Shown in pieces: positions 2,296 to 29,500 of a DNA stretch of 64,000 bases. Under the pieces are notes generated by a model. It had not been told where the DNA came from. It ran no database searches and was given only the letters and a program-made list of their open reading frames with translations. The stretch is from Chaetodon trifascialis (Eukaryota). The DNA lies in the NCBI RefSeq assembly GCF_039877785.1, contig NC_092066.1:5379152-5443151 (forward strand), written 5' to 3'. The translations under genes were made by a program, and so were the position numbers. Positions within the stretch are counted from its first letter, which is position 1. Every line of letters starts with the position of its first letter.

Positions 2296-2490
2296 AGAGG
2301 CTCTTTAACTTCACATCTTAGTGTGTGAAAACAACAGTATCGACACGAGACGGACGGAAAGTCTCACTGGGGACTGTAACGTCTCAACAAAACAAAACAA
2401 ATCAACAACAACAGCAAACAATAACAACAACAGCGGAATAACCAAACACTAACGCCAAACAAGGGCGGACTGAGAGAAGCTAACTCAATG
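2296..2490 (+). CDS. 5' exon of ApoL-repeat gene 1: mostly 5'UTR, with the initiator ATG at 2488-2490 immediately followed by a GT donor (atg|gtgagt), phase 0
   Basis: The acceptor is ttttttcag|agaggc at 2295. The sequence ...gctaactcaATG|GTGAGTtaac follows the classic pattern of a first coding exon ending right after the ATG. Phase 0 joins cleanly to exon 4601-4672 (QKAALFGGMFKRSS...). An alternative in-frame ATG lies at 4595-4597. Confidence 0.45.
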
Positions 2491-4600
2491 GTGAGTTAAC
2501 GTTTAAAAACTAGCTAACGTTCGTGTTTAAAGCGCACCATAAACCGAACATGTCGGTTAATGTCTGTGAAAGTAACCGCGAATGACGATGGAAATGCACT
2601 GTTTGACAGGAGCGATACGACAACCTGGATCTGGACTTGGAGTGTGAAGGAGGAGGCGTAGCTGTGAGTGTTATCTGTCCGTTGTCTTTCATGAAAGTTT
2701 AGCCAGCTAACGTTAGTGTTGAAAGGTTTTTTGCGGAGCTGCATTTACAGTTTGCTGAAGTCAGTTAACGACCGTGGTTTACCGAATTTAACCGACCTAA
2801 CCTCAATCTGTGCGACGGAAACTCTCCATGTACAAACACACACTTACACAGTGAAGTCCAAAAGTATGTGCTCATGTTTTCTGTTGTGCTGGCGCATCGG
2901 ATTTAACATCTAACAATGACTATGAGGCTGAAAAGCTGACTCTCAGCTTTGAGTGCTCAGTGTACAAACCGTAGCTCTGTCATCACGGCCGGATTAACCG
3001 ACCAGCATGGTCCAGGGCGAAAATGTGCCACTGGGCCCCCATTAACCCCCCACACCAGATTAGATATATTAATATGAATATCCACAGCACAAGACTGCAT
3101 CAAGTTTGAGAAATTAAAGAATGAGGCTGGTTGCATAGGTTGTTTGCTGTAACTTGATGTTGGATTCAAATGGAGGGCAGGAAGTGAAAACCAATGGACG
3201 AGATGGAGGAAAGTTCGTAATCTGCTAGTTTAGAAGAAATTACAAGAGAAAACTGTACAGAAAATCAGAGAAAATGTTGGATGTGACCTTTATGTTATGA
3301 GGCAGCTGCTATTGAGGCAGTAGATATAACAACTACCTGCTCATTCAGATGTCATTCTGCTCTAGAAACCAAATCAAAGTATTCAAAAGTATGGAGGCAA
3401 ACAACTTTCTTGTTAGCCGTTGGGTGCACAACCTTGGTACCTAGGCTTTCCCCCTTATGGACAACAACTTTTGGTACTCGATCAAGCTCCTTATGGTGTC
3501 TCGGTTTGATCAAATTGACCAACCATAATCACAACACAGCTGCATTTTGAGTGTGTGTTGAAGTGCCTCCTATGCAGAAAATCACTTCCTGCCCTCCATC
3601 TGCAACTCGTGCCACAAAAAAGAGTGATGTGACGATATTTCAACAAATCCCATGAAAAGACCAAAACCAACAACGTGTTGCTACTGACTGACAAAAATCT
3701 TTAAACACAACTTACAAATATATAATTCGTTTTTTAATATAGGCTCAGAAATTTTCTAAAGCAGCTGGGCACTGCAGTTTTTAAAAAACGTTACTTAAGT
3801 TTGGGACTACTTTTAGCAGTGGATTAACACACTTTTTGTGTCAAGTGAGTATTTCCAGCTGCAGAGCAGTTTATGATGGACTGAGTCAAAATAGACTGAA
3901 GTATTCAAGTTATTGTGCTGAAGGAACATGTGCGTATTATTGAAGAGTCTTTCAGTTCAATGATCACAAACCAGTTGACTCATAACACACCTGAAGCTGC
4001 TGGAGCCCTTGAGTCCCTCCTACTTTATTTAATACTGTTATGTAAAGTACAGAAAGGGGTTTGTGTTCTACACTGTTTATTAGTTAAACCTGAAATAAAG
4101 CATCACAGTTTCTGTTTATATCAAGACGATCATCAAGAAACTTACAGACCTTTTTGTTTACAGCTGCATCCTTAGAAAAGGCTTTAAATGTTAAGCTAAA
4201 AAAGGCTAAAATCTGTTTACTGTCCAGTCTGATGTATTGTAGTGCTCCAGTCGTTCTTTAACAGGCTGATCAGTATTATGGTCAGTTTTCACAGAGCTAG
4301 AAACGCACCAATCACCCTAAATTTACTGTCGTCAAGGTTTCAAGTCCAGACATGAAACCAGCTTCAAGTCCGGACTTGAAACCTGGACCGTGGGATGTGA
4401 ACCAGTGAATGCGTCCGCTCATCCATAGAGTCATCTGTGAATTGTCGGTCATTCGAAGCATCTTTTCCGTGCAGGGGCAGATTGATGCTGCTGACTCACA
4501 GGTCATGGCAGCGAACGTTCACCCTCTGTTACTCGCTCACTCTCACTGAAGCTGCTCTGTCAGAACTGAATTAGTTTGCTCTTTTTCGCCCCTCATGCAG

Positions 4601-7600
4601 CAAAAAGCGGCGTTATTCGGTGGAATGTTTAAAAGATCCTCTAAGTCTGCAGAACCGTCTGTCCAAACTCAGGTGAGGTCATAGATTGTTTTTTAACTTC
4701 AATCATCAAATTCATTTGATAAGTTAATACACTGATCGAATGTCTCTTGAATGTTTCATTTAAGATGCTCACCTGTTCTCATGCTGTTCATGTGTGCAGT
4801 AATAAAATCACAATAACTGCTGCTTTGTGAAATCTGCAAATGATGGAATTACAGCATCTGATTCTGCGTCTGCTCACAAAGTTTGTGTGTTGATGTTACA
4901 GGACAGTTTATCAGCCAGCAGTGAACTTTCAAAGAGCAGCGACAGTCTGACTGACAACAGCGCCAAGGTGAGGCTCAGGAAACAGTCCTGGAAATTTAAT
5001 TTTTCTTTTCAAACTTTTTTTCTGGCCATCAGTAACCAAACTGAGGAGCTTTCATTGTGCTATGAATAATGGCAGTGTTTTTTAGCTTATAGACGGACGG
5101 ACTTATTTATTGATATTTCAGGAGAAAGGAGGCGTGTTCAAAGGAATGTTTAAGAAGACGACCAAAGCTGGCAAAGAGGGCCAACCGCAGGTGGGTAGTG
5201 AAATCATTAGTCGATTAATCAATCAGTTGATCAGCGAAAGATCAGTCAAGAGAAAGAAAAATGGGTCTCAGGTTGCCTTTATTTTGACAAATTTTTCATC
5301 ATTTTATTTTCATGTATTATTTATTTACCTTTATTACTCTGTATTTCTGAGTTTATGCTACTGAAAAATCTTTTGTAATCACTTGAATCTGTATTGTACC
5401 CATCAACAAAAATGGGAAGACGTAAAAGAAAAGTGATGGTCATAAAACAATGAAATATTTAAATATGTGTCTCCATAGTTGTTTTGAAATTCACAGATGA
5501 GATTCTAAAGCTTTTCAATCCTTTACAGGACAACCTGTCATTACCGAATCCTGAGCTGTCTGTCAGTACTGACAGTTTAACAGACAACAAGTCGTCAAAG
5601 GTGAGTTTACGTTCTGCTCTGTGAGATTTTTGGTTTTCTCACGTCAGTCTTTGAAAGTGAACCTTTTGTCTGCAGGAAAAGTCAGGCGTGTTCAGTGGGA
5701 TGCTCAAACGATCTCCTAAACCAGGACACGCCCGGAGGCCTTCACAGGTGAACCATTGATCTGCTATCTGCTGTCTGCTGTCAAAGATATGTCCAGAGAG
5801 TAAATCATCATGACATGTAAACTGTTGTGTTATTTCCTGACTGATCATCATGTGTTTCAGGATCTTTTGGAGAACGAGTTCACAGGCAGCAATGACAGTC
5901 CGTCTGAAAACACCACAACTAAAGTGAGTCTCATCAGCCAAACCAGTTTTTTAAATGCAAAAACATTCAAAAACACAAACAACTGGAAACAAATACAAAC
6001 GACGCTCACAAGCCTGTGATGCTGCTGGAGGCAGTTTGTTCTTAACTGTGATTTTAAAGCATTTTAAGCACTTTTTTTTTTTACTCTAAATGACCACAGA
6101 GCTCTTCCTTAGTGTTGACCAGCGACACATGTTGGTGATTCTGAATTGATTTAACCTCCAGTGGTTGTGTAGACCTCGACTCAGTGAATGGTGAGTTTGG
6201 GAAGGGTGTGATTTGTTTTTGTGGCTGTTTGGAAGCTGAACCTGCCTGCATCAGCAGTTTGGATGAGGTGCTGGCCAGCGTGTGAAGCACCAAATCCCCG
6301 TCTGTCCATCTGACAGCTGCATCGGTTCAATAGACAGAACAAAAGGTTTTATTTTCCGTTTCATTTCAGGGAACGTATAAGCAACTAATATGTGACTTTT
6401 TATTTTTCAGGAGTCAGGAGGGATGTTCAGCGGGATGTTTAAAAAATCCTCAAAGCCACTTGGAGCGAGGACACAGTCTCAGGTGAGAACTGCGCGTCTC
6501 ACTTTTACCTGTGTCACATTATTAATCGGTAACGAGTGTTTGTCTCTTGCCTTCAGGATGAGTTGTGGGCACCCTGCGAGCTCTCAGGCAGCAGCGACAA
6601 TCTCTCTGCAAACAGCAACACTAAGGTGGGTTGTGACAGGCAGCTGCTCATCTCCATATTCAGCCGCTGTGACTAACACTTGCTCCCTGTTTTCAGTCTA
6701 AGCTGATGGTACAGTCACATCACACCTCTGTCCTGCATGTATTTGCTCCATTGCTCATTCACTTCATCTAAAATCTGTGTTCAAGCATGCGTTTCTTGTT
6801 TTAGTGCAGCTTCCACACAGCCGCCTGTCAGTTTGCATCTACTGGTGTGAACACTGATGCACTTTGCTTTGAAACAGGAAAGTCATCATTCTTCCATATT
6901 TATTGATCAACCACATGACGATTGTGACATCACATCCTGTTTCAGGGCTGAGCGGTGTCACTGACCTGTGGGATAATGTGACTGTACCTTAATGCTGTTT
7001 GTATAGAGCTCAGCTCATTATATGCAGCGTCTGGGAAAGTGTGTTTCTGTGTTTGTTCTTGTGTGTGTTGGAAGGGCGAGGCAAACCTGCAAGTGTTAGC
7101 GTTTCAGAGGAGGCTACAAGCGGCTGAGTGAAGGGCGTACCGATCCATCGGACATTTGAAACCTAACTTCCTCCATTATGGGCAGAATTTCACAAAACCG
7201 TTCCATGTGACTTTCTTTTTTCCAGGAGTCAGGAGGGATGTTCAGTGGGATGTTTAAGAAATCCCCAAAGCCTTTCGGAGCGAGGACGCAGTCTCAGGTG
7301 AGAGCTCTGCACCTCATTTGTCTCACATATACCTGCGTTAGCTTATTAGGAGATGAAGGTAATAATCAGACGGGGATGTTTGCATCTCGCCTTCAGGATG
7401 ATTTGTCTGCACCTGGCGAGCTCTCAGGCAGCAGCGACAATCTTTCCGTGAACAGCAACACTAAGGTGAGGTCGTGAAAGCGGAGGAATTCCTTACTGAA
7501 CTCCTCCATTTTGGGCCAAATTTCCTTAAACCGCTTTGATGTAACTTTTGTTCCAGGAGGCAGGAGGGATTTTCAGTGGCATGTTTAAAAAAACCCCCAA

Positions 7601-8496
7601 ACCCTTTGGAGCAAGGACGCAGTCTCAGGTGAGAGTCATGGAGTATTGCTGCATCTTACAAATCTCACCGTTAAACCGTCTTACTACAAAGCAATTCAGC
7701 AGGATTAATGTTAATTACTCTGCATTTGTTTCTCGCCTTCAGGATGATTTGTCTGAACCCAGCGAGCTCTCAGGCAGCAACGATAATCTGTCTGAGAATA
7801 ACAACACGAAGGTGAGGTTTCTTAAAGCCAGCCACTGATTCTGCAGCATTAACCATGAGTAGTAAATGAGTGAATGTAGTGATTTGACATGTTGGCTTCA
7901 TATTATTTTCTCAGGAGAAAGGAGGAATCTTTAGTGGTGTGTTCAAAAAAAAAGGTGCCAAATCTCAGTCTCAGGTAAGACGGCTAAGTTTTTCAGACAG
8001 CTAACGAGTGTAAACAAACTGCCAGTCCGCCATTGTTGTTGTTGTTGTTGTTTTAGGCTCATTATACAAAGCAACAATGGGCATGCACAGACTGAGGTGA
8101 TGACACCATTGTTTCCCAGACACTCTATTTTACCTGTCCATGCACGCCTGCTCCTTTCTGCAAACAAAAACATGAAAGATAATCACATAAAAATCAAACA
8201 TGGCACCTTTAACGCTTGTTAAATGTTCGGTGTTTCGGTTGTTTTCTAGTTAACAGTTGCTCCATTTAATTTCTCACCTTTCTTGCTAATAGTCACCCAC
8301 AGTCTGCTTTGCTCCAGTGTCTGCAGTTCTTAAGTGAAATGTTGACATTTCACCTCGAAGTGAAGCTTCTGAGCGTCCTTTTTCGTCTTGGCTGTTGCTT
8401 TCTGACTGTGCGCTGTGTCCCTCTGTTCAGGATGATTTGTCCGTGGGTGGAGATCTCTCTGCCAGCAGCGACAGTCTCATAGAGAAGCCTTCAAAG
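4601..8496 (+). CDS. ApoL-repeat gene 1, N-terminal exon-pair repeat array: 14 short phase-0 exons in strict alternation of type A (basic, GMFKK-xPK) and type B (acidic, SSDSLSEN)
   Basis: Every exon has an AG acceptor and a GT donor, a length that is a multiple of 3, and no stop codon.
- 4601-4672: QKAALFGGMFKRSSKSAEPSVQTQ
- 4902-4967: DSLSASSELSKSSDSLTDNSAK
- 5122-5190: EKGGVFKGMFKKTTKAGKEGQPQ
- 5529-5600: DNLSLPNPELSVSTDSLTDNKSSK
- 5676-5747: EKSGVFSGMLKRSPKPGHARRPSQ
- 5861-5923: DLLENEFTGSNDSPSENTTTK
- 6411-6482: ESGGMFSGMFKKSSKPLGARTQSQ
- 6557-6625: DELWAPCELSGSSDNLSANSNTK
- 7226-7297: ESGGMFSGMFKKSPKPFGARTQSQ
- 7397-7465: DDLSAPGELSGSSDNLSVNSNTK
- 7557-7628: EAGGIFSGMFKKTPKPFGARTQSQ
- 7743-7811: DDLSEPSELSGSNDNLSENNNTK
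- 7915-7974: EKGGIFSGVFKKKGAKSQSQ
- 8431-8496: DDLSVGGDLSASSDSLIEKPSK. Confidence 0.75.
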
Positions 8497-8616
8497 GTGT
8501 GAGACGACGCTCACCGCACTGCACTCCTCTCGTCACGCATCACAGAAACTACTTTACACTGTTGGTCATGTTCTGAGATTAATGACATGCTGCTCATGTG
8601 TAATGTGTTGTAGCAG

Positions 8617-10459
8617 GATAAGGAAAAGGCTGAACGCTCGAGTGAGAATACCTCCACCACAGAGAAGCCCAAAGCCAAGCAGGTGAGTGACTGATCTCCT
8701 CTCTGTTGAAGTAAATCTGCTTTATATCAGCTGTGACGTTAAGGTGAGGGTTAGGGCTGTTTTTAAGTGGACTGCAGCAGTGTCTGTGTCATTTCAGAAC
8801 GGTTTCAGTGCGATGATGAAGAGCACCTTCTACACTGACAAACAGGTAAGAGCGGCAGACTGAACTCTTGACTTTTGCTGCATATCATCAGTTCATCTTC
8901 CCCATCACACGCCCCTGAAGCTAAATAGTATCTCAGTCAGAAACGCCTGAAAACAATAAAAGACAATGATGAAGTCGTCCACAGATGATTGTTGTACTAC
9001 TGTTGTTTATATTTTACTGTAAATTTGGCTCCTTGTGCAGGAGAAGAACCCAGATTCTGACCGTGAGGAGATATTGGACAGTGGAGAGGGCCAGCCCAGT
9101 CAGAAACAGGTTTGTGAGGTTTTCTCTCTGGGTTTCAGTCAGCAATTTATTTTCTTTATTGTTTCCCTATTTCATATTTTTTTTGTCTCTCGTTTGTTTT
9201 GTTTCACATTCAGAGCAAACTCGCTGAGACGATGACAAAGCTGAATCCGTTTCGATCCGCAAACAAGGTAAGGAAGGTTTAGATGTGATAGTGCTCGAGA
9301 GATAAGTAAAGTTTCCTTTGATGAATGGATGTATTGAAGGACCGTAACTGTGCAGCCTCTTTTATGTGTCGTTCATAAAATAATGATTTCTGTCTTCTCG
9401 CTGCAGCCGGAGAAGCAGGCGGGCTCAGACGACGAAGATCCACCTGCGAGCAGCGAGAAGTCATCAGGCAACAAACAGGTGCTTTGATATTTGCTCGTTC
9501 CTGTTTCATAAGTTTGAAGTCATGTTTGTTAGGGGTTGAAAAGCCTCTGCACATTGTTTGTCTGTTGTCAATAAAAAAGGAGAAGCTTGCTGCTTCCTCA
9601 CGTGTTGCTCTATTGCCAATCTTGTGAGTGTGTGTGGGCACATGGGTGAAACAGGCAGCGTGAAGTGCTTTGTTCTGCTTTGGTCAGAAAGTGGAGAGTC
9701 ATGAGCCAAAGGTTTCAGATTTACCCACAGGTTCTGTCCGTCGTCCAGCTTTACTTCTCTTATCTTGTGGATTTATTAGCGGACTCATTGTGGCTGATGG
9801 CAGACAAAGCAGATACTTATCTAAAATGCTGAAGCGTTCCCTTAAATCTTTCCACCTCAGAGCACCGTGGTTGGAGCCATGTCCAAACTCAATCTGTTCC
9901 GCTCTGCAAATAAAGTAACTATGCTCTTGATTGTGTTTGGTCGTGGTGGAGGTGTTGGTGAGATAGTCATGATGATGAGGTTTAAGGTGGCAGGAAGTCA
10001 TCATAGTGGTGGTGGGACTGTGGTAACGGTGATGGAGGTGATGTTTGTAGAATCTTTGGTTCGTTTTAATGAGTTGTAATGGTGTGCTGAAGACTTAAAG
10101 GACCATACCTGTGATTTCTCATGCTGCACCCAGTTTACTACAGAACACATGCACTTAACATCACAGCTAAACCCTGTGATGAATGACACAACTCAAACAG
10201 GTTTCAAGAGAGCAAATGGATTTCTGTAGTACATGGATTGTAGTTAAAGAGTTAAACTAGCAAAAATAACTTGGTACGGTCCTTTAATTGCTGCACAAGT
10301 AATCTGATTTTGGTCGATGCTGTTTAAATGCTAACGCTGAAGTCCTTCGTTCAGAAAGACACTGAAGACACAGAGACGCTCAAGGAGGATGGGAAACAAG
10401 TGGAAGAGAAACCGAAAATGGTCAGTCTATTTTTTGCATCACTCATGAGTCATCAGTGA

Positions 10460-10511
<52 letters not shown>

Positions 10512-13500
10512 CTGATCAGCTTCTGTCAAAAACACCCTCCTCCTCACGCTCCTCCTCATCCCCTTTACCTCCCTTTAAATCCAGCTTGCTCGTCGTCAAA
10601 CCTCACCGTCCTCCTGCTCCGACACACTGTGTGACTGTGTGTGTGTGTGTGTGTGTGTGCGTGTGTGCGTGTGTGTGTCCTTGTCAGGTCAAAGGCAACA
10701 TGATCCAGCGAGAGAGCAAAGAAAGAAGTGAAACGCCGTCGGTCCCACCCAGACCAACTGAAGAGGTTCACAAGCAGTAGAACACAACTGGCACTCAGAG
10801 ACGTGGTCCATGTGAGACTATTCGTCCGTCCCTCTGCTGTGAATTTTATACTTAACGCTGTGATCTTTCCTCAGGAGATGAAGAGCATATCGACATACAG
10901 CAAAGTAAAACCAAGAGGAACTGAGGGTCATCAGGTACAGTTTGCACTTCTCAGATTTGCTCAGTGACTTGTGGGCTGTCTGCACATCTCTGCTTCCTCA
11001 GAGCCTGAATATATTTGAAGATATCTGTTAAAATACAATTAAAAGGAGTTAATGATTTTATATTCCAGCAAGCCACACAATGCTTCTGACTGTCATGCTT
11101 TGTATGGAAAGGTGTCACTAGTTTCTCATACTTTGTCCTCTGCAGGACAACAAGGACGTGAACTCCAGAGAGAAAAAAGCTAAAGCTGCAGAAAGTCCTG
11201 AAGTTCCCGTCAGACCTTCAGATGAGGTAGTTTAAGCTTTCAGCCTTATAGGAAAAAATGTCTGTGTGTCAGTTTGGAGCTGATGTGTGGTTAAAGAAAC
11301 TGCTCTGCTTTAATTTCAGGAGCTGAGCAGAGCAGAGAGACGTGCTCTGCAGAAGCACCATCAGGTACGGACAGTCAGGCCAACATATTGGTTTGTTATT
11401 GAATATCAGCTATTGGATATAATGGAGTTTTTTTCCCCCCTGAGTCAGAAATGTGTTTTGCTTATTGTTCCTTCACTTGATGTTTAACCTTCACTGTGCA
11501 GAACGAAGCATGTGCAGACTTTGACTCTTTGTCGAAAACACTTTTCCTGAGATTACTGTAGTTATAATCTAATGAGTTTAATTTGCTGCAGAGCCAATCA
11601 GATGACGAAGGCCTCAAAAACGAAGAATCTGCTGAAGCCAAAGGGAGAGACGAGAGCAAAACAGTACGTTTATCTCTTCATCACTGTCGATAAGATTGCA
11701 TTAATTGCTAATCAGAGGCTGACTGACTGCAGTATTTATCTTACGTCTGTGTGTGCTGAGCGTGAGACTTTCTCTGTCAGTCTATGTGTGATAGGACTCC
11801 ACATACATGAAGGTGTAAACAAACACAGTATTTGCTCCAACATGTAAACGTTCTAGTTCCTGCTTCCTACTTATCACTTCTTTCATTCAAATGACATGCG
11901 ATACCTCCGGGTTATTGTTACTGTGAGGTTTGTCCAAGCTCGTGGATTGAACTTCTTAACATCAGCTTCATTGTTGTATAATTCATAGACATTTCTCCAA
12001 AGTTCAGCCTGATATATTTGGTATTCCACTTTGGGATATCCGGTAGATTAGAACGATGTTTGGCTGCACAGCATGAATTTCTTTCCCCACAAAGCCACTG
12101 CTTATTGAGGGGCTGTTCAGTGGAAATAGTAAATCTCTCAGTGATGGGAGCAGATGATAATGAGATGAGACATACAGAAATAGAATAGTTACCTGCATGT
12201 TTGAGGGAAGTTATAGCCTCTCATCTAACACATCATCACTGTGCCGTTTCTTTTACAGACCAAGGTGAAAAAGCATCATAATCCGTTTATGCCTCGTGCA
12301 GCTGCTAAGGTTTGTTTTATTTTGATGTTTGCACTTCTTGTAGAGTCATGAAGACATTTGTCTTCTTTGCTCGTCCCTCAGTTTGTGAGACACGATGTTT
12401 GATTCATTACCTCCTCAAATCTTTGGCAAAGGCTGCAGAATGTTAGAATCTAAGTTCATTCACATGCAGCCTTGTGTAACCTCTTTCCTCCGGGCACTGA
12501 TTTGTTTCACTGCTATGCTCACACTTTGTTGTTTACTTCAGGCTCCGTCTGATGATGAGGGGCTGGGAGAAGAAGATGATCCTTCGTCCAAAGAGGAGCA
12601 GAAAGACGAGGAGGGCAAAGACAAAACAGAGGAGGTCTTTTAACTCATTTCCTTCCGCTCCATCTTTGCTTGTTGATTGGTTAAACAGTCAGCTGGAACA
12701 AATGCTTCAAAATCTTCCTCAAAGTAACACAGAAATCCTGATTTTTTTTTTCCTTTTTTTCATTTCAGACAAAAGTCAAGAAACCTAAAAGACACAATCC
12801 CTTCATGCCTCGAGTCAAGGTAACAGTCAAATATGTACCAGCTTGCTTCCTCACGTGTGGACAAAGCCTGCTTGTGTTTTAACACATCAGCTAACTGCAC
12901 TTTGTCCTCATTGAGCAGTTCACATCATTGAGGACAACACGATCGTCCGCATCCTTCCACCCTAAAAACAAAAATCAGGCATTTTTGTTCTCAGACAGCG
13001 GCTCTGTATCAGTCTGCAGCCTGTTCAGCAGACATTGTGTTTCTGCACGTCGCTGAACTGGAGAAACAAGAATCTGAGTGGGCATGATACGTCATCCTGC
13101 AGGTCACGGTCCTGAAGCGCTGTACGCCACATCCACCCATTCCAGGCATCCAGTGCTCGTTATTCTCTGCCAATTAAGTTCATTGATAGGTGCGTGTTGA
13201 ATATATGGAGGAAAAAAGTTGATGTCAGCAGGTGTTAACACAAATGAAACACGCTCCAGTGGAGGATCTGCATCACACCAGCCCACGTCAATACAAAGCT
13301 ACGTCAGAAATGCCCTCCTGTTGGCTGTTTAGTGCACATCGTTTGCTTTTCACTCTGTTCTGGTCTGAAACGTCTCTGTGGAACAAAAGAAGCTGTGTCC
13401 ATATCATGTTCACTTCCTCCTGCCGAATGTTCCACAGTGCAACATTTCTCCTTTGTTATGGGAAAGTTGCAGTTAAGCAACACTTTCACCCGTCACCATC

Positions 13501-16500
13501 ATCTCTCTTTGCTCACTGGAGTGCTCCTCTGTGTGACCTTATTTTGGCGAGGTTGCTAAGTTAGCATAGCTGAAATTTCAAATACTGCCTTTTATGAGCA
13601 CGGCATGAGTTTGTCACCCGGTTACTGTTTTGAAGGGAAGAAGTTATCAGTTATTATGCCCTTTTTTGTCATTTTTAAGATGTTAAAAATGATCACTCTT
13701 ACCTGGTGTTGCTTTTGGCGGCCTGTTTTAATTTTAGTCTTAGTCTAGTCTTTGTGTCAAGCTGTCATTTTAGTTTTTATTAGTTTTAGTCACGTTCATA
13801 CTCTTTTTAGTCTAGTTTCAGTCGACTTAAAGTCTGAGTACTTTAGTCTTATTTTAGTCAGAGTTATCCGGGACTATTTTAGTCTAGTTTTAGTTGATGA
13901 AAATTGTATTTTACTCTCTTTTTAGTAATGCAATTCTATTTAACCCAGTCAATATAGTATAAGTACCTAGTAATATAGACGAAACCAAAATTATCTTTTA
14001 GCCAAACCCATTTCACAATTCAAACAAGGTTGTCTTATTATATATTGTTACCTTATAGAGTCAAGAATACACCCATTCCAGACACCAAGACGCTCTGATG
14101 TGAATTTACAACATATTTATTTTACCAAGCAAAGCCGGCTGGCCATCGGTCCTGTTCTCTGTGTCGGTTGTCTGTCGTTAACATTAACCTACCGCAGCTG
14201 CATCTTCTAAATAACGCCGTGAGTGGGAACTAATGCCGTGATGTCACCTGCGACTGCGCAGTGCGACCTGAAGCAGCCCCTGAAGTGAGACACAGGAAAC
14301 AGAAATACTGCAAAATAATAAGAACAACGCGACTAAACGAGACGAAATAACGTTAGAACATTTTGTCTCGTCTTGTTTTAGGCAACTAAAATAAAGAGAC
14401 ATTTTAGCAGAGTTTTTATTTTGTAAACCACATTTAGTTTCATTTTTATTCGTCATCAATATTTCATTATATATTTAGTTATAGTTATCGCCACATGACC
14501 AGCATTTACGTTGCGTCTCGTCTCCTTTTCGTCACACGATAAAGGTTCGTTGACAACGATATTTAGTCAGAATTTTCGTTGACCAAAGCAGCACTACTCC
14601 TACCTCCAGATCAGCTCTGCCTCTGAATAATGGTTGTGTTGCTGTCTGGACTGTATGGGAACCAATATGAGCCTCAAAGCATGTTTTGATAAAGCTATTG
14701 AAAGTGCTTTAACTGTGTGTTTGTGTTCATTGTTTTAGGGCAAAGTTGTAAAGAAGCCTGCGCAGGACGGAGCTGCAGGCAACACAGCAGAGGTAGAGAA
14801 ACAGATGATCTTCAGGAAGTCTTTCTTTCTTTCCTTCAGTCACCTCGCATTACATTTAGAGCGACTTTTAACCTTTTCCCTCCCAGTCTGTGTCTGTGTA
14901 TTTATCCACCAGTCTGACATGTTGCCGTCTTACTCACTGTGGTTCAGGATTATAAAAGGCCTGTTTCAGTCACCCAACCCATCCCTGAAAACAACCCCTT
15001 TCTGTTGTTTGTCTCCAGGGTCTCCGCTCAGCTCCCAGCAGAGACTATTATAGTTGACATGTTTTTTTTTCCTCCACTCTCAACATGAAACCCACCCCCA
15101 CACCTTGGCTCCACCACACGGTCTTTGTGCATGCATGTGTGGAAGATAAGAGGAGGAGGTTGCAATGTGCCCAGACTTGTTTCTCTGCTTCCCTTTTCAG
15201 CGTGTCCATGGAAGATTTAAGCCCTTTGTACTTCTGCAAAAACAGCAGAAATAAGTCAGTTCAGTCAGAATCCTTTTCCCCTCACTTCCTCCTCTTTATC
15301 TCACCATATACAGTGTAAAAAGTGAAACTATGTGACGCTTGATGAGTTCATTTGACTTCTCGCTCTTTTATATGTCTCTCAGCCTTTTTGTCCTGCTGAC
15401 GTACACTTCAGCTGTAGATCCAGACTTTTGGCTTCACACAGGAAAGCATCTTGATGTTAGTTTTGGATTTTTAAGCAGTATTTTTCCTGTTGTTTCAGAA
15501 TGAAGGTGCAAACAGGTCCTTGTTTGACCAACTGGAAGACTTCCGTATTGATCCAACCCAGCCTGAAGACAGACAGGTTTGGCCTCTGAGAGCAAAATAT
15601 GTCACCATAGTATCATTTCAGCATAATCTGACACATTATCAACTATCTCTCCAACAAATAATCCAAGTTTTAGCTTTAGTGCTCATTCATTGGGTAATGT
15701 AAGAAAACTGCAGGTGGCCAGAATGGGTTCAGAACAGATGATGACGATATTTTTCTGTTACGATAGATTCAGAGTCTCTCTATTTTCTTTGTGTATGTTA
15801 CTTAAATGTTGTCAGTTATTATTGTTTCATGCACAGCGTTATGATGTGTTATATTAGTGTATTGTGATGACCAGAGTGAGTGTGAACTGTGTACAACCCA
15901 TGAAGAAAAGCTGCTAATATACAAAAATCAGGATCTTGATTGAATCTCACGGTGTCTTTCAGGATGTGGAGGATCTTATGGAGTGGTGGAACACAGTGGA
16001 AGGTAAATCATAAATAAAATGTTTTTCACTTTGTTTGGCTTTCTTTGGGCTGTGTTTTAAGAGTGGAAGGCCAGTTTTTTAGTTTAACCTTGAACCACTT
16101 ACACTGTGTGACCAAAATATGTGGACGTGCCTGTTTACATACCCTAGTGTGCTGTTTTTCTTGGTTTGGACCCCTACGTTCCTATTAAAGGAAATCTTAA
16201 TGCTGCAGCATACATTTATATTTTAGAAAATAGTGTTCCTCGTTATAAAGTTTCAACATGATGGTGCTTCTGTGCACAAAGCCAGGCCCATAGAGAAATG
16301 GTTTAGTGGCCTGCTCAGAGCCTTGACCTCAACCCCATCCAACACCTTTGGGATGAACTTGAACGCAGACTGCGAGCCAGACTTTATCTCTCCAATGTCA
16401 GTGTCTATTAAAACAGCATATTCGTGCCCATACTTGTGGAATAATGCACTGGATGTTTTGTGTCCACATACTTTTGGCCATATAATATAAGTAGGATTGT

Positions 16501-16587
16501 GAGAAAGCTAATATCGTTCTTTATTACTCCTTCAGTTTGGGAAGACACGCCTCAAGATGATGACATGACGGAAAAAGAAGAGGCGAA
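8617..16587 (+). CDS. ApoL-repeat gene 1, middle exons: additional repeat modules and linker exons joining the array to the ApoL domain
   Basis: Exons carry AG...GT boundaries and are in frame, phase 0 unless noted.
- 8617-8682: DKEKAERSSENTSTTEKPKAKQ
- 8798-8845: NGFSAMMKSTFYTDKQ
- 9041-9109: EKNPDSDREEILDSGEGQPSQKQ
- 9214-9267: SKLAETMTKLNPFRSANK
- 9407-9478: PEKQAGSDDEDPPASSEKSSGNKQ
- 9861-9914: STVVGAMSKLNLFRSANK
- 10355-10420: KDTEDTETLKEDGKQVEEKPKM
- 10688-10765: VKGNMIQRESKERSETPSVPPRPTEE (weak donor gttcac; an in-frame stop lies 15 nt downstream)
- 10875-10934: EMKSISTYSKVKPRGTEGHQ
- 11146-11226: DNKDVNSREKKAKAAESPEVPVRPSDE
- 11320-11364: ELSRAERRALQKHHQ
- 11592-11663: SQSDDEGLKNEESAEAKGRDESKT
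- 12259-12309: TKVKKHHNPFMPRAAAK
- 12542-12634: APSDDEGLGEEDDPSSKEEQKDEEGKDKTEE
- 12769-12819: TKVKKPKRHNPFMPRVK
- 14739-14792: GKVVKKPAQDGAAGNTAE
- 15499-15576: NEGANRSLFDQLEDFRIDPTQPEDRQ
- 15963-16002: DVEDLMEWWNTVE, ends in phase 1
- 16536-16587: (V)WEDTPQDDDMTEKEEA, ends in phase 2
The 10688-10765 and 25956-26036 exons of the two genes are clear paralogs. Confidence 0.6.
10461..10508. repeat. (CA)n microsatellite
   Basis: A perfect dinucleotide run, with a (GT)n partner at about 10637-10678 on the other side of a short unique segment. Both lie in an intron of gene 1. Confidence 0.95.
13690..14600. repeat. putative non-autonomous DNA-transposon relic, rich in TTTTAGTC/TAGTCT words and with internal palindromes
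   Basis: The words ttagtct/ttttagtc recur densely between 13730 and 13900. A palindromic segment lies at 14330-14390 (cgactaaacgagacgaaataacgttagaacattttgtctcgtc). The element sits within the intron between exons 12819 and 14739. The family is unknown. Confidence 0.3.
16090..16490 (+). mobile_element. internally deleted Tc1/mariner (Tc1-like) DNA transposon relic inside an intron of gene 1
   Basis: The translation contains the Tc1 transposase C-terminal motifs (FQHDGASVHKA...PAQSLDLNPIQHLWDELERRLRARLYLSNVSV, spread over frames because of frameshifts). Inverted terminal repeats are gtgaccaaaatatgtggacgtg (about 16108) and tgtccacatacttttggcc (about 16461). Confidence 0.6.
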
Positions 16588-17078
16588 GTAAGTGAATAGA
16601 TGTTCATATTTATATAACAATAATAATGTAATATTTCACTGTCTGGCATCTTTGCTCTCTCAAAGTGGTATTCAGCCATGCAGATTTCACGTGGAGTGTT
16701 GAGATGTAAAATATCTTCCACGACCTCAATATAATTATGAGAATAAAATTTAATTTGTTCTCTCCTCAAATCTCTGAAACGTCGCATTTGAAAAACTATG
16801 ATTGATAAAAACAGTGACTCAGAAACAATGCCAGCACTCCTCTGGATAATCCACAGAACATGCTGTCAGATGGTTCCTTTATTAGAGTAGCTCCAAAGAA
16901 AAAGCTGATGACAGAAGGTTGTGTGGATTATCAGAAAATCAGAACCTGGTTTCTACGGTTTTGTGGGAGTCGAATGGTTAAATGAAACGATCTGCATGCA
17001 GACGTACACCAGTGGTGAGTGAGAGACGATGACGTTTAAAGATAATGAAGGTTATAACTCTCGTCTTGCTTCTCTCAG

Positions 17079-18021
17079 GGCTTTTGCTGTGACGGCGGAG
17101 AAGGTGCAGAAGGGCATCCGTGTCTTCAACAAACTGTTCTCGGAGCGCGCTGAGAGCCTCTGGCAGCACGTCATCGACCTGAACAGCATCGCAGACGGCC
17201 TGGACAAGTTCAGCAAAAACACAAAGATCGCTCAAATCACCGGCGGCTCCACCAGTGCCATCGGGGGCGTGGCCACCATCGCCGGCCTCGCTCTGGCACC
17301 GGTCACCATGGGAACCTCCTTGATTGTGACAGCGGTGGGACTGGGTGTCGCCACGGCTGGCGGTTTGACGTCGGCAGGCGCCGGCATCTCCAACCAGGTC
17401 AACAACTCTATGGACCGCAAGAAGGTGGAGAAGATCGTGCAGGATTATCAGGAGAAGATGGTCGACCTCAACAAGTGCCTGAAGTTCATCAAGCAGGGAA
17501 TCGAGAACCTGAAGAAGTTCGACCTGATCAAGATGAAAGAACACGCCTACAACCGCGACTTCCCTGTGCTCAGCAGTAGTTTCTACGAGGACGGCGCCAT
17601 GGCAGGAAAGGCCATCCTCATCAACGCAAACGAGATCATGCGCGTGGTGCAGATCGCCAACGTGGCGGGCAGCACGGCGGCCAGAGCGGTCCAGATCGCC
17701 AGCATGGCCACCGGTGTGCTCACCGGACTCTTCGTAGGTATGGACATCTACTTCGTGGCCAAAGACTCCAAAGAACTCAAGAAGGGGGCCAAGTCCGAGT
17801 TTGCCGCCAAAATCAGGGAGGTCGCCACGCAGCTGCACGACGGTCTGGTGGAGCTGAACACGATACGAGAGGAGCTGCAGTGCACCGGGCCGGAAAACAA
17901 GGACGCAGGCGAAGAGAAAGAGAACGAGAAAGAAAACAAATACGACAGTTCAGATGAAGATGAAATCGACCGCATTAAAAAAGCCATTAAAAAGGACATC
18001 GAGAGCCGAGAATACGTTTGA
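17079..18021 (+). CDS. ApoL-repeat gene 1, terminal exon: a complete apolipoprotein-L (ApoL) domain plus a short acidic tail, with the stop at 18019-18021
   Basis: The acceptor is tctctcag|g at 17078, and phase 2 gives K-AFAVTAEKVQKGIRVFNKLF... The translation has the hallmarks of the ApoL family. A glycine/alanine-rich hydrophobic hairpin (KIAQITGGSTSAIGGVATIAGLALAPVTMGTSLIVTAVGLGVATAGGLTSAGAGI) is followed by ...ILINANEIMRVVQIANVAGSTAARAVQIASMATGVLTGLFVGMDIYFVAKDSKELKKGAKSEFAAKIREVATQLHDGLVELN... This matches the long ORF 17029-18021 in the track. An AATAAA at about 19622 could be the polyadenylation signal. Confidence 0.85.
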
Positions 18022-24539: not shown

Positions 24540-26441
24540 GCAGGATGGAGGCGTGTATGATGAAGCCAGAAGTCAAAAAGAAGCCGAAGCTGGTGAGAAC
24601 AGTCACAGGTTTACTGAATATTGTAGAACGTGTAAAAAAACACAGATGGAAATATGAATTACTGCATCATCACTCAAAGAGCCTCATGTTTTCTTCTCTG
24701 CTCGCAGCCTAAACCTCCTCCAAAGCCCACAGAGGTACTGTAACAACCCTTTGATCAGTCAATCATTAGCTTGAGTGGTTGTTTATGTGCGACTTCAGGA
24801 TGTTACAGCGAGTTAAACTGTCGTTACAGAGACAAAGAAATGACCCAGAGAGACCAGCTCCTCTGGTGCCCCCCCGACCTGCAGACACTGTGAGTGCTCA
24901 CCGACCTGGAAGACGTCCTGATCTTTTACAGACCAGAGGTGTTTCTCTGAAGGGTCTGCCATATGTTTTTATTATGTTTACCTTCTACTGGAGGAGCAGT
25001 GTGCCAACATTTCTAAAGATCTGCTAATGTTGAAATAGATTGCATAAGCTGGGTTCCAGTGGAGAGATGTTTTCCACTCTGTGAGGTGGAAAACTGAAAG
25101 ATAATCCACAAAATCCAGATCAGCAACAAAGATATATGTAGTTTTTATGCTGCACACGCATTAAAACTTAACACAGGTGTACCTACAGGCCAGTCTAAAA
25201 CCAGTATGACAAAGTGCTCCACCACTGAACGTGACTGCTTTTAGCTGTGTTCTGTTGTCATAAGTTTTCTTTGAGGAAATGCCCTCTTTGGTTCTTTAAA
25301 TAAAGGTTGAATGAATGAACATTAACACAAGCTGACGTCTGTAATTAGCCACTGATCAGGACTGATATGAGCAGTAAAAACAACAAACTCTCGTAAAGCC
25401 GCTGAAGACACAGAGGAAATATGGAGCACAGGCCACTTTATAAGATTTACTTGGAGACGAAAATATTTTAACCATTCGTGTTTTCTGTGCAGGAGCTGAG
25501 TCAGACACAATACCGCATGAAAAGAGCAGCAATGAACAATGAGGTACCTTCTTTTTTTACATTTCCATTATTTCTGTTTTACTCGATAGTTTCCTGTAAA
25601 GAGAGATCGAAGCGGGGGAGGGGATGATGTGTGAGAATATCCTGGTAAATGTTGAGGACAACCAGACTTTTCTTGATTTAAATACAAGTAAAACAGGGAT
25701 TTGTGATGGCGAAGTGGTTCAGACACATGCTGTGAAAAAAATCATCTTTGAACAAAGAAAAACAAAATGAGATATGAAAGATCATGTGACAAAAATGATG
25801 CTACAGACGCACCACCAAAAAGATCAGTGCTTTAAACATCAGTGTCATGATTTAATATGTGGGTTTACATGTCCAAACTATATTCTGACGTACCAAAAAC
25901 ACTCTTATTATGGCTGCCTTCAGGTGTTTTTCCTCACTTTTTTTGTGTGTTTCAGACCAAAGGAAACTTGATCCAAACAGAGACAAAAGAGAAACCGACT
26001 GAATCTCCCGTGGTTCCACCCAGACCCACAGAAAAGGTACGAAACACCCAAACACTCATCATATCATGATACTCAGCAGTACTAGTATTGTCGTATTTTA
26101 GAGCAGTGAGAACAATTTACAGTGAAGAACCGACCAGAGCTGCACGAGGTTCCACGTTTCTGTTCCTGTTCCAGATCTCTTTTGTTATTGTTCCCTCGTG
26201 TGTGTGTGTTTGTGTGTGTGTGTATGTGTGTTTGTAGGAACTGAATGCCACAACCAGATACAGTGAGCGCAGGAGGGTACAAGCTGAGGACACACAGGTA
26301 CACACACACACACACAATGAAATACTTTGTTCCTCCTTGCTTGGTTTTATAAATCACAGTTATCGTCCTTCCTCTTCCTCATCAGACTTCCAGAGAAAAC
26401 AACCAATCAGAAGCGCCCAAAGATGAGGCAGACTTCAAACA
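24540..26441 (+). CDS. ApoL-repeat gene 2, N-terminal exons: putative start ATG at 24545, then proline/basic-rich VPPRP modules
   Basis: Exons are phase 0 with AG/GT boundaries.
- 24540-24592: ATG at 24545, MEACMMKPEVKKKPKL
- 24708-24734: PKPPPKPTE
- 24830-24889: RQRNDPERPAPLVPPRPADT
- 25493-25543: ELSQTQYRMKRAAMNNE
- 25956-26036: TKGNLIQTETKEKPTESPVVPPRPTEK
- 26238-26297: ELNATTRYSERRRVQAEDTQ
- 26385-26441: TSRENNQSEAPKDEADFKQ
The 25493, 25956 and 26238 exons are paralogous to gene 1 exons 11320, 10688 and 10875. The true initiator could lie further upstream. Confidence 0.5.
26197..26234. repeat. (TG)n microsatellite (imperfect)
   Basis: A gtgtgt run immediately upstream of the acceptor of exon 26238, in an intron of gene 2. 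Confidence 0.9.
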
Positions 26442-26593
26442 GGTATTTCAGCTGGAGCTGTTATCGGCTGTCACGTAGTGCAGTTCAACCCTGATCCCAG
26501 AAACGACGGGACGCTGTGTAAAACATTTCAGAAGTCGGTGATCAGCGAATCCTTCTAATGCTCAATTATTATTATTCCGTGTGCTTTGTTCAG

Positions 26594-29500
26594 AGTGATC
26601 CGACGGTCCTGACTGGGATGTTTCGGCGGAGCCAAAAAGGCCAAACGCCTTCGTTCACTGTAAGCGATGCAGCTGCAGCTCGTCTCTGCTCCGTAAATCA
26701 CACATGACCTCTCTAAGTTAAAACCAGAGGCTCAGTTCAAAACATCATCTGCTTTTTGAAGGTTTTTAGAGTCAGTGTAACTTGTCGTTTGTGTTTGCTT
26801 CACCTGCAGAGGACAATTTTGAAACAACAAAATCTTGATATGTAGGCCTACATGATCTCATAGATGTTGATTCAAGAACTTAAATATACTAATACTCAGT
26901 CACATAAAGCATAAACGTGTGTTTTAGAGCTTTGAATCAGCAGCTGTTGAGTGTCTGTCTGGTTTTCTTTCTTCCTCAGAGCTATCTGATCGACAGCTGC
27001 GCTGAGGAGGAAAAGTCTGACGATGCCCCGGCCAAACAGGCTCCTGGCAGCAAACCGGTGTGTGCGTATGTACATTATGCGTGTGCGTCACTGTTGATGT
27101 TCTCAGCTGGTTTGTGACATGTGACTGCGTTCAACAGAGTGCTCTGAAGGGAGTAATGAAAGGATTACAGTTCAAGTCATCACCGAAGGTATGAAGCACC
27201 GCCTGCCTCGGTGTTTTCTGCTGGTGGCGGCTGCAGTGTTACAGCGTCTTACACCTGTAAAAAGTACCCTCTCCTGTGTGGTGGCGGTGGTAGTAGTAAC
27301 GACATGTGGTTTTATTTTTCTCTGCTGGCACATCCCTGTTGAAGAATCAGTGCATTACATCCTATTTTTTTACATTTCTGTATCAAAATGTTCATATCTT
27401 TCAGTGTTTTACCTCCTGGATTTATTTTAATGTTTATTTTTTATCGGACTCCTTTGGTGGCTTCAGGGTCTTTCGTCCAGTCTGGGACTTTGGTTGCGTG
27501 TCGTTCTCTGTCTGCACTCACTTCCTGTCATCTCTCGGCTTGGAAACATTCTCTCACTGTCAGCATTTAAAACCTGCAGCGTCACAGCTTCACACAGTGA
27601 CACATGTGGGCTTACGGTTACGCGCTGCTGCCTGACGTTGAAATAAAGATAGAGCACAGTAGAAAGCATAAAAGAAGTAAAATACAACATTTTGAAAGGA
27701 GTGCAGCAGCGCAGACTGTGAGTGCAGTCTGGATCTGGAAAGTCATAAAAGCTAAAGTGAAGACACGTTTTTAGCTTTCCTTTAAAAATATTTAGCAGGT
27801 GAGATCTGCCTGTGATCCACAAAGGCTGCTGCTGGGAACACTGGTCAGAATTTATTCTGTTTATTTTAAGTTTTAAATTAAATTTCTCAGTAAGGTCACC
27901 TGAAACTTTGAGGACTTTTGGCTTTTAACTTTAAGATGTTCATCCTCCTTCATCCACAAAGCAGTTGTAAATACGGACGATGAGGTGACTGGAAGCAACA
28001 GGACGATCTTTATGAAACGTTAAGCAGTCAAAATGTCTGTCTGTTCTCTCGTCTGCTTGTACTGATGATAAAATCAGGATGATCATAATGTCGCTGAAGA
28101 TTGGTGTCTCTTCTCTAAGGCCAGTGTGGAGCCAAGTCCAGGCGGCGTCACGGAGGACGCAGGCGCAGAAAAGGAACAACCTGCAGAAAGAAACAAGCAG
28201 GAGAAGAACGCAGAACCCAAACAGGTAAGAGACGAATGACAGCGTCTGACTGCCGTCGCTAATATGTGCTTTCACAGTGTGTTCACTTAACGGCGTTAAC
28301 ATCTGATTTTTTGTGTCAACCTCTCCGTCAGGACTTCGGAGGTCTGATCGCCGGAATGTTTCGGAAAACTCCCAAAGAGAAAACGCCATCTCCCGCGCTG
28401 ACGGTACCATCGAGTCTTCTGCTCGTTTTCTGGTCCAACGTTCTGACTTTCAGCCTCTGACTCTCTGTTTTGCTCACTGACAGGTCAGCAAAGCAGACAG
28501 CGACCCTGAAGATGCAGAAGAAGCAGAGGAGAAAACATCTGAACAATCCCACGTAGGTCTTCTATTTATTTCTTCTTTTTTCGCTCTTCTGAAACATAAG
28601 AACATTTGGAGTGGAGGGGGGTTTTAAGGATGGATCCAGGCCCCCGCTATGTGTGGCTATGAGCTTCTCACTATCAGCAGATCTGTGAGGGGATTCAGTA
28701 ATCAGCGTCTGCAGTCAGTCAGCTGACGACGGTTTGACCTCGTCAGCGGCACAGAGCTCAAACTGTAATCTCTTCAGTTGTCACTCACTTGTTTAGTGTT
28801 TGGATTCCCAGAAAAAGTCAGAGTCAGATAAGCGTCCTGTGTCTGAACATCCCAGCCACTTTCAGGCGGCGTGTCTTCTGTTTCCTTTATTTGTATCATC
28901 ACAAACTGAAATCTTTTGCAGGAAAAAGGAGGCTTCTTCTCCGGCATCCTTAAAAAACCCAACAAAGCACCAGAGGAGACTCCTGCACAGGTGAGGGACA
29001 AAAAGTGGCTTCTTCCTCCTTAAAACACAACAGAAAAGTTAATGTTGGTGTTTTTCATTTCACTGTGTGTGTTTCTTGCTTCCCGGTGGTGTTTCAGGAG
29101 AATCTGAGTGTCAGCAGCGAGCTGTCCGCCAGCAGTGACAGTCTGTCTGAAAACAAGGTGAGCAGCTCTGCGTCACCGTCCCAAACTTATCTTTAATGAC
29201 AGTGTACACACAGACGCCTCACTGACCTGACCTTGACCAAAATAAATCCTCCATTACTGAACGTGTGCTCGTGTCTGTCTCAGGAAAAAGGAGGAATATT
29301 CAGCGGGTTGTTCAAGAAGTCTCCGAAAGCGGCAGAAGCGGCTCAGACCGACGAGGTGATGGAGCTGAAAACAAGTCAGCAAGATAAATAACGTCATCAG
29401 TTTAATCCACACTCACACTGAACCAGCTCGTGTTGTGTTGCAGGACCAACAGTCTCTACATGACAGTCTGTCAGGCAGTAACGACAATCTGTCTGAAAAC

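Follow-up and report, generated by a model that had tools for sequence, protein, structure and literature searches.

Which gene carries a run of very small, regularly alternating exons in the fish Chaetodon trifascialis, how did this run arise, and what might the encoded protein region do? These questions are raised by an exon array at positions 4601-8496 of a 64-kb stretch of contig NC_092066.1 (5,379,152 to 5,443,151, forward strand), which is referred to here as the window and within which all coordinates are given. The explanation that best accounts for the observations overall, and that we regard as highly probable, is that this element is the cassette-exon array of teleost apol1, made by tandem duplication of paired A and B exons and proposed to function as a cytosolic tether. 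The structural and evolutionary description of the array is held with very strong confidence; the proposed function is a tentative one.

On the forward strand, positions 4601-8496 hold 14 small exons of two types, termed A and B, which follow each other in strict A-B order seven times. Their lengths in array order are 72, 66, 69, 72, 72, 63, 72, 69, 72, 69, 72, 69, 60 and 66 nucleotides (nt), every one divisible by three, and each exon is flanked by a pyrimidine tract and CAG on its 5' side and by GT[AG] on its 3' side. The phase table gives phase 0-0 for all 14, for the exon before them and for 12 exons downstream, and the phase of the array is fixed by the upstream coding pieces (the ATG at 2488-2490 and the exon at 2610-2663). 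Splice sites, lengths and upstream frame thus bear out the preliminary description of this locus, in which the sevenfold alternation of phase-0 exons had been read from the sequence. The A type is basic-hydrophobic, with the pattern EKGG-phi-FSG-phi-FKKSPKP (for example ESGGMFSGMFKKSPKPFGARTQSQ in exon A5), and the B type is acidic and Ser-rich, with the pattern ELSxSxDxLSEN (for example DDLSAPGELSGSSDNLSVNSNTK in exon B5). Regular expressions for the two patterns match 16 (A) and 14 (B) times in the whole window, all on the forward strand and never on the reverse strand, compared with means of 0.17 and 1.9 matches on both strands together in shuffled windows; since the matches lie far above this expectation and all on one strand, the A/B pattern is not due to chance.

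The suggested test for periodicity gave a positive result, as a self-BLAST of the window yields a periodic pattern. Tandem Repeats Finder detected no array at the DNA level in the window, the divergence of the units and the irregularity of their spacing being too great for it. A comparison with a second array further downstream in the window, also proposed beforehand, returned 35 high-scoring segment pairs (HSPs), all plus/plus and confined to exons, in which A exons match A exons and B exons match B exons. Furthermore, a spliced RNA sequencing (RNA-seq) contig from a related species (Logan SRR28040489, hereafter L001) holds a continuous open reading frame (ORF) of 517 amino acids (aa) that is 77% identical to the array, and the ends of its blastn HSPs coincide with the predicted exon borders in the window. 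With this related-species contig as a substitute in the splice-aware transcript check, the borders agree and the frame is kept.

The first unit consists of A1 (4601-4672; QKAALFGGMFKRSSKSAEPSVQTQ, net charge +3), which has a one-to-one orthologue in L001 and in other percomorphs, and B1 (4902-4967; DSLSASSELSKSSDSLTDNSAK, -2). It is followed by A2 (5122-5190; EKGGVFKGMFKKTTKAGKEGQPQ, +4) and B2 (5529-5600; DNLSLPNPELSVSTDSLTDNKSSK, -2), and by A3 (5676-5747; EKSGVFSGMLKRSPKPGHARRPSQ, +5), the position of which is conserved across species, and B3 (5861-5923; DLLENEFTGSNDSPSENTTTK, -4). Exon A4 (6411-6482; ESGGMFSGMFKKSSKPLGARTQSQ, +3) opens the first unit of the 'ARTQSQ' class and is paired with B4 (6557-6625; DELWAPCELSGSSDNLSANSNTK, -3); then come A5 (7226-7297, +3) and B5 (7397-7465, -3), and A6 (7557-7628; EAGGIFSGMFKKTPKPFGARTQSQ, +3) and B6 (7743-7811; DDLSEPSELSGSNDNLSENNNTK, -5). 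The last unit is formed by A7 (7915-7974; EKGGIFSGVFKKKGAKSQSQ, +4), which is likewise conserved in position, and B7 (8431-8496; DDLSVGGDLSASSDSLIEKPSK, -3). Direct blastn support from L001 was obtained for B1, A2, B2, A7 and B7.

The phase-0 chain runs well past 8496, as tblastn searches with homologues show, and the gene is far longer than the array. The model of this gene, called gene 1 here, is a 947-aa ORF on the forward strand, which leads from an ATG at 2488-2490 through 28 consecutive phase-0 coding pieces to a terminal coding exon at 17079-18021 with the ApoL domain and the stop codon, the latter exon being supported by Pfam PF05461, identity to teleost apol1 and hydropathy. The start codon is a lone ATG that ends its 5' exon, with the donor GTGAGT directly after it, and the N-terminal coding exon at 2610-2663 (ERYDNLDLDLECEGGGVA, phase 0-0) is supported by tblastn, by blastn with L001 and by the gene model. 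The N-termini of homologues start with M-[DE]RYDNLDLDLECDGGG; the ATG and the exon at 2610-2663 reproduce that start and join A1 in frame. At the 2610 exon an in-frame stop codon precedes ERYDNL, with an acceptor immediately before ERYDNL.

Two side observations concern this N-terminus. At the junction ATG/GTGAGT the first coding piece of gene 1 is 3 nt long, the last three bases of its exon, and gene finders requiring a longer initial exon would overlook such a start; it may be the reason why many annotated models begin at an internal Met. In addition, the conserved acidic N-terminus reads YDNLDLDLEC-D/E-GGG (2610-2663), with LECD-G in most species and LECE-G in the window, and the former resembles a caspase-type cleavage site between D and G.

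The ApoL domain of gene 1 matches PF05461 at 17032-18018 with E=5e-37 and 128.4 bits (gathering cutoff 25.9; profile positions 44-297 of 298). Teleost proteins named apolipoprotein L1 have domains that share 72-94% identity with it, the closest matches being contigs at 94% identity, compared with about 45% for the domain of gene 2, a neighbour described below. Full-length RefSeq models of Alosa, Hypomesus and Poecilia (apolipoprotein L1, 842-1037 aa) join the N-terminus, the A/B units and the ApoL domain, as does a Synchiropus model named 'titin homolog' (1044 aa), and a collinear order of N-terminus, A/B units, exons with Asn-Pro-Phe (NPF) motifs, WWNTVE segment and ApoL exon was found in comparisons with the homologues P0042, P0051 and P0058. 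Because the full-length apolipoprotein L1 models share the N-terminus, the A/B units and the domain, gene 1 is identified, on sequence grounds, as teleost apol1 ('apolipoprotein L, 1'), with the array as its N-terminal repeat region. The preliminary description had recognised neither this identity nor the continuation of the exon chain beyond 8496. The homologues of the array are all teleost proteins, most of which are 'uncharacterized' or misnamed.

Units 4, 5 and 6 of the array are 83-87% identical as protein and 81-90% as exon DNA; between their A-B introns the identity is 69-82%, interrupted by indels of 25-40 nt. Units 4 and 5 are also preceded by long introns that are collinear, with 63% identity over 118 nt, which is above the shuffle null. 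Since units 4-6 align through both the internal intron and the upstream flank, whole units of A exon, intron and B exon were duplicated in tandem. The preliminary description, which had proposed growth of this kind by tandem duplication or unequal crossing-over, is supported here by the shared intron sequence and by copy numbers that range from about 0 to 4 between species. Its estimate of unit size, roughly 330-800 bp, agrees with the measured spacings of 815 bp from unit 4 to unit 5 and 331 bp from unit 5 to unit 6. The intron sequence that it quoted as common to all three units ahead of the B exon (tctcgccttcag) agrees letter for letter at 7397 and 7743, but the sequence at 6557 is tctcttgccttcag.

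The species from which L001 derives has the same seven units as the window. For units 1, 2 and 7 the orthology is one to one, with a nucleotide identity of 81-86%, unit 3 shows 66% identity because it is shortened in L001, and units 4-6 are 75-89% identical between window and L001, compared with 82-89% within the window. When percomorphs are compared, units 1, 2, 3 and the final one are conserved in their positions, and the 'ESGG...ARTQSQ' class varies from about 0-1 copies (Poecilia, Stigmatopora) to 4 (Tautogolabrus, Pseudoliparis), the copies of one species sharing species-specific residues. These patterns fit repeated unequal exchange or gene conversion over long periods in the middle of the array, and do not fit an event in the very recent past. 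Units 1, 2, 3 and 7, on the outside, are old, and so are the three middle copies of the window, all of which are present in another species.

With phase 0-0 at every array exon, splicing can leave out whole units without a frameshift, and the expectation that any subset of these symmetric cassettes preserves the reading frame is matched by RefSeq isoforms of other fish that differ by exactly such cassettes. In Pseudoliparis swirei, isoform X5 is without precisely the orthologue of B7, and X4 without another small exon further downstream. A block of 85 aa with the order B-A-B-A is absent from Entelurus X4, A/B blocks of 45, 40+47 and 185 aa are absent from isoforms of Osmerus apold1a, and exons of 17-18 aa with an NPF motif are left out of isoforms in Hypomesus and Poecilia. 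Furthermore, several isoforms in Pseudoliparis, Entelurus, Synchiropus and Poecilia are distinguished by one residue (E, Q or K) where an exon begins. In the window, tandem (NAGNAG) acceptors of the form CAG/GAG precede A2, A4, A5, A6 and A7 (5119-5124, 6408-6413, 7223-7228, 7554-7559 and 7912-7917), and further tandem acceptors lie downstream, TAG/CAG at 8614/8617 (8611-8616) and CAG/GAG at 9041 (9038-9043). Use of the alternative site at the five A-exon acceptors would drop one Glu, which matches the one-residue isoform variants of other fish. The array exons are thus cassette-like, and exon skipping in C. trifascialis is predicted from their phase and from the isoforms of other fish.

A 47-aa profile of the A-B unit, searched against 1.84 billion representative proteins, gave only 99 matches, and 31 of the 36 long ones carry PF05461; the A/B repeat can therefore be regarded, by its distribution among sequences, as a hallmark of ApoL-domain proteins. 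Conservation was profiled over 492 repeat instances from 109 proteins, which span Elopomorpha to Percomorpha and two paralogous genes. The A core in this set is E-K-G-G-phi-F-S-G-phi-F-K-K-S/T-P-K and the B core E-L-S-A/G-S-N/S-D-S/N-L-S-E/D-N, with more than 3 bits of information at G4, F6, G8, F10, K11, K12, K15, S34, S36 and L40, 3.0 bits at D38 and less than 1.3 bits in the linkers. Such high-information cores joined by low-information linkers indicate two short linear motifs under purifying selection.

The named sources of the A-B matches are all teleosts, from Elopomorpha (Gymnothorax, Aldrovandia, Albula, Anguilla, Conger) to Percomorpha, with two exceptions that match the A part only: a giant beetle 'ankyrin-2-like' protein and a nematode repeat protein. 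In the beetle protein (P0074, Dalotia/Atheta coriaria, residues ~2370-3880; E=6e-13), a repeat of ~106 aa occurs about 12 times in tandem, with EKEKRKSGIFSGIFGKKDKGKESEDEK and an A-like core SGIFSGIFGKK in each copy, and the repeats of the nematode protein (P0076, Bursaphelenchus xylophilus) contain KIGKIVGMFKRTPAHEDY; the A-like core in both may be a convergent basic-hydrophobic motif. Among other fishes, cypriniform apol1 (Danio aesculapii, carp; ~464 aa) lacks A/B units, catfish apol1 has one A-like motif, and the gar and sturgeon ApoL proteins on record are short. Pfam found no family match at E<=10 in the concatenated array except a chance match to ImmE5 (E=6.6), and sequence searches of the PDB with the unit profile and with the ApoL domain returned nothing significant. 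Literature searches combining ApoL, teleost and repeats, or using apold1a/apold1b and the literal motif strings, found no description of the A/B repeat, so that the repeat itself appears to be undescribed; the gene and its repeat region are already present in RefSeq predictions of other fish.

The alternating positive and negative charge patches that had been predicted from the motifs are present: A exons carry a net charge of +3 to +5 and B exons of -2 to -5, with a dominant charge period of 45.9 residues. The composition of the array is that of a disordered region, at 19% Ser, 11% Lys and 10% Gly, with a charged fraction of 0.26 and a net charge per residue of about 0. Within the first ~620 residues of the protein the maximum Kyte-Doolittle value (window of 19) is 0.57, and since this part has no hydrophobic segment it contains neither a signal peptide nor a transmembrane helix. 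Values above 1.2 occur only at residues 687-737, a Gly/Ala/Thr-rich double segment, and at 834-862, both in the ApoL domain. An AlphaFold2 model of the closest orthologous array protein (P0002), built on a shallow alignment of 10 sequences, has a mean predicted local distance difference test (pLDDT) score of 47.5, with every residue below 70 and secondary structure absent, which is consistent with an intrinsically disordered A/B region.

Between the array and the terminal exon, the gene continues with 12 exons of phase 0-0, which were defined by tblastn, enumeration of splice sites and ORFs, and comparison with orthologues. The first six lie at 8617-8682, 8798-8845, 9041-9109, 9214-9267, 9407-9478 and 9861-9914, and the last six at 10355-10420, 10688-10765, 10875-10934, 12542-12634, 12769-12819 and 15499-15576 (all on the forward strand). 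They are followed by the exon DVEDLMEWWNTVE (15963-16002, phase 0 to 1), supported by splice-site and ORF enumeration and by the gene model, and the exon (V)WEDTPQDDDMTEKEEA(K) (16536-16587, phase 1 to 2), supported by the gene model. Conserved NPF motifs are found at 9214-9267 (KLNPFRSANK) and 12769-12819 (RHNPFMPRVK), and the middle copy, in exon 9861-9914, reads NLF in this species. NPF motifs also occur in Pseudoliparis, Poecilia, Synchiropus and even zebrafish-type apol1, and they are candidate EH-domain ligands. Downstream of exon 10355-10420, positions 1580-1747 of L001 extend beyond the donor at 10420 in a read-through ORF (VSLF..SLMSH-stop), which is conserved, as are the first ~50 nt; the segment 10355-10471 is 91% identical to L001, which is above most exons. 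This read-through could be a retained intron, or an alternative end that gives a repeat-only protein without the ApoL domain. The intron at 10421-10687 also holds (CA)n and (GT)n microsatellites.

Several observations weigh against reading the locus as an apol1 gene whose array serves as a tether. By alignment with orthologues, the gene model probably lacks two to four small exons at 10.9-12.5 kb and 12.8-15.5 kb, and its splice and isoform support comes from the other-species transcript L001 and from predicted RefSeq models of other fish. The functional part is built on composition and analogy, with no Pfam match to MARCKS or any other family and no relative of solved structure, and the shallow alignment is a caveat to the predicted disorder. 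Because cypriniform apol1, including that of Danio, has no array, the array is dispensable for core ApoL function. Finally, the array and the ApoL exon are annotated as separate genes on the same contig in Tautogolabrus (P0001, P0144), Stigmatopora argus (P0005, P0160) and Lampris (P0011, P0166/P0169), the Pseudoliparis models (isoforms X1-X7) end without the ApoL domain, just upstream of its exon, and L001 enters the intron after 10420, where it ends with an in-frame stop after the 91% conserved read-through stretch and never reaches the ApoL exon. This last group of observations favours a two-gene arrangement, in which the array belongs to an upstream repeat-only gene and apol1 proper starts downstream with its own promoter. 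We nevertheless consider that arrangement very unlikely, as single models in at least eight species (P0042, P0051, P0052, P0056, P0058, P0064, P0039, P0043) join the N-terminus, the array and a gene-1-type ApoL domain. Moreover, the short 'apolipoprotein L1' models begin at differing, arbitrary internal Met residues inside the exon chain, as truncated predictions would, the Pseudoliparis models run through the exons immediately upstream of the ApoL exon, and the ORF of gene 1 in the window is uninterrupted across all modelled pieces. L001 itself has neither a poly(A) signal nor a tail and stops within a low-complexity part of the intron, as would be expected if the assembly had broken there or the intron had been retained. 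There is similarly little chance that units 4-6 are very recent duplications, as the preliminary description had held, and perhaps still polymorphic in copy number within the species. No other units of the array are as alike as these three, which have intron sequence in common and are members of the class that differs in copy number between species; however, their exons differ by 10-19% and their introns are 63-82% identical, and the species of L001 has the same three units, with identity inside the window no higher than that between the species. The alignment of intron flanks that had been recommended for dating the copies thus indicates that they are not young.

Two further alternatives concern what the motifs are for. 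One, put forward in the preliminary description, treats the B motif as a hierarchical CK2-type (S-x-x-E/D) phosphorylation cluster and the protein as a string of kinase-switched charge patches. Ser and Thr do make up 26-45% of the B exons, the net charge of which is acidic; one S-x-x-D/E site is present in each of B1, B2, B3 and B7, and SSDSLSE is common among the B exons of gene 2. Even so, this reading appears quite improbable, since S/T-x-x-D/E sites are depleted in the B exons and not enriched. The seven B exons hold 4 of them, compared with 9.1 +/- 2.3 in composition-matched shuffles, 99.5% of which have at least the observed number, and B4-B6 have none because the key Ser is Asn (SSDNLS). 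Over the 492 repeat instances the candidate CK2-target position is Ser in 39% and Asn in 21%, and the invariant features of the B motif are instead E-L-S, S36, D38 and L40. Phosphorylation of B serines by some kinase is possible. Likenesses of the B motif to PLK-, CK1- or Fam20C-type sites and of the A motif to WH2 were noted by eye only and are not claimed. The other alternative holds that the array is a sequence-unspecific disordered spacer, for which nothing but length and composition counts, the motifs being remnants of the duplications. Its predicted disorder, its variable copy number and its absence from cypriniforms would suit such a spacer, but the contrast between high-information cores and linkers below 1.3 bits, maintained over the 492 instances in 109 proteins and two paralogous genes, makes it very improbable.

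As to the function of the apol1 array, the proposal is that it lies on the cytosolic side of the membrane that holds the inserted ApoL hairpin and acts there as a multivalent, charge-patterned tether. The A motifs, rich in Lys, Phe and Met, would bind weakly and additively, either to acidic lipid surfaces or to a shared partner, on the model of the MARCKS effector domain, and the B motifs would provide an acidic counter-charge, possibly tuned by phosphorylation. The NPF motifs downstream (9214-9267, 12769-12819) could recruit EH-domain trafficking proteins, and the number of units, set by duplication, loss and exon skipping, would tune avidity and reach. The effector domain of MARCKS consists of unstructured Lys and Phe clusters that bind acidic lipids electrostatically, a binding that is reversed by added negative charge. 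The composition of the A exons, with a net charge of +3 to +5, two Phe/Met pairs and predicted disorder, is compatible with an unstructured cluster of Lys and Phe that may bind acidic lipids. The A motif, with ...FSGMFKK..., can be compared with ...LSGFSFKK... in MARCKS, but Pfam detected no homology and each A motif carries only +3 to +5 charges. By analogy, this tether picture is possible though rather doubtful, and it would be compatible with the membrane insertion and membrane-remodelling roles proposed for ApoL-family proteins (PMC11726835). A broader proposal, which we think unlikely, is that the A/B unit is a teleost-wide bipartite short-linear-motif module that, in 3-16 copies, docks the membrane-inserting domain of apol1 and apold1a onto a specific surface or partner, with avidity set by exon number and skipping. 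The module would be hundreds of millions of years old by our reckoning. Furthermore, the recurrence of an A-like core in the beetle ankyrin hints that the A core may be a general, convergently evolved membrane- or cytoskeleton-binding peptide.

The neighbour of apol1 in the window is a second ApoL-domain gene in tandem, gene 2 (25950-40233, forward strand), which is of apold1a type according to the NCBI symbols in Sardina, Pungitius and Osmerus. Its array, with which the similarity of array 1 is confined to exons, comprises about 21 A/B-type phase-0 exons at 26.6-35.4 kb, which mostly alternate, with a few A-A and B-B neighbours. The ApoL domain of gene 2 is split by a GT..AG intron (37558-37977 and ~38587-38976) and has relatives at 77-92% identity, and the gene ends in a long acidic, Glu-rich tail in one ORF to 40233, which accounts for the GC- and A-rich composition at 38-40 kb. 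Elsewhere in the window, a fragment of a non-long-terminal-repeat retrotransposon reverse transcriptase lies at 1-~1000 on the forward strand (CYADDTQLY; Pfam RVT_1, E=1e-10) and explains the GC skew of -0.30 in the first 2 kb, and a 194-aa ORF at 55912-56496 on the reverse strand has no Pfam match.

Among known systems, the nearest are the RefSeq models of teleost apol1 in Poecilia reticulata (X1-X7), Alosa alosa (X1-X7), Hypomesus transpacificus (X1-X3) and Synchiropus splendidus (XP_053740238-40). Like gene 1, these have the N-terminus M-D/E-RYDNLDLDLECEGGG, the positional units 1, 2, 3 and last, the NPF exons and WWNTVE.WED, and their ApoL domain is 80-89% identical to that of gene 1, with a number of middle units that differs from species to species. 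Automatic names of fish apol1 models are often misleading, such as 'titin homolog', 'dentin matrix acidic phosphoprotein 1-like' and 'HDGF-related protein 2-like'. Teleost apold1a, the type of gene 2, likewise encodes A and B motifs in small phase-0 exons that precede an ApoL domain; it differs in its domain (~45% identity, intron-split), its N-terminus (MEACMMKPEVKKKPKPP), its long acidic tail and its imperfect alternation. Zebrafish 'zApoL1' has served as a model of human APOL1 (PMC4854397, PMC4492502), and zebrafish apol1 is the only fish ApoL studied experimentally (PMC4854397). Zebrafish and cypriniform apol1 share with gene 1 an orthologous ApoL domain (82-83% identity), WWNTVEQWED...MTEKEEA and one NPF-type motif, but they are ~464 aa long and have no A/B array. 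Mammalian APOL/APOLD1 proteins act in membrane insertion and remodelling (PMC11726835, PMC8557400), and the hydrophobic helix hairpin, which is seen in gene 1 by hydropathy, is a hallmark of the ApoL family (PMC11726835). Mammalian APOL1-6 and APOLD1 have, like gene 1, a Pfam ApoL domain with such a hairpin; unlike gene 1, they lack the A/B repeat region. Human APOLD1 is ~279 aa long, and APOL1 has a signal peptide, in contrast to gene 1, in which none is found by hydropathy. Alternating modules on small exons of uniform phase, which serve as in-frame cassettes and grow by tandem exon duplication, are also known from tropoelastin and titin-PEVK, although tropoelastin exons split codons uniformly instead of being phase 0, and the sequence and function of both are unrelated to those of the A/B array. 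Tandem cassette-exon arrays for disordered repeats are a well-known kind of feature, of which the apol1 array is a fairly ordinary example.

To conclude, ApoL proteins matter in kidney disease and trypanolysis (APOL1) and in a bleeding disorder (APOLD1), and their cellular mechanism is still debated. The adjacent apol1 and apold1a-type genes of this window offer a practical lesson, since automatic annotation often splits or misnames such genes ('titin homolog', 'dentin matrix protein 1-like'), errors that a profile built on the A-B unit would put right. The locus also shows with particular clarity that a disordered region encoded by symmetric pairs of phase-0 exons can grow, shrink and undergo alternative splicing. 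Most teleosts carry on apol1 and apold1a a large, conserved and alternately charged repeat that has no Pfam model and is missing from the zebrafish model gene; if the A/B unit is indeed a docking module, zebrafish, in which the array is missing, would be unrepresentative as a model of ApoL biology in fishes.

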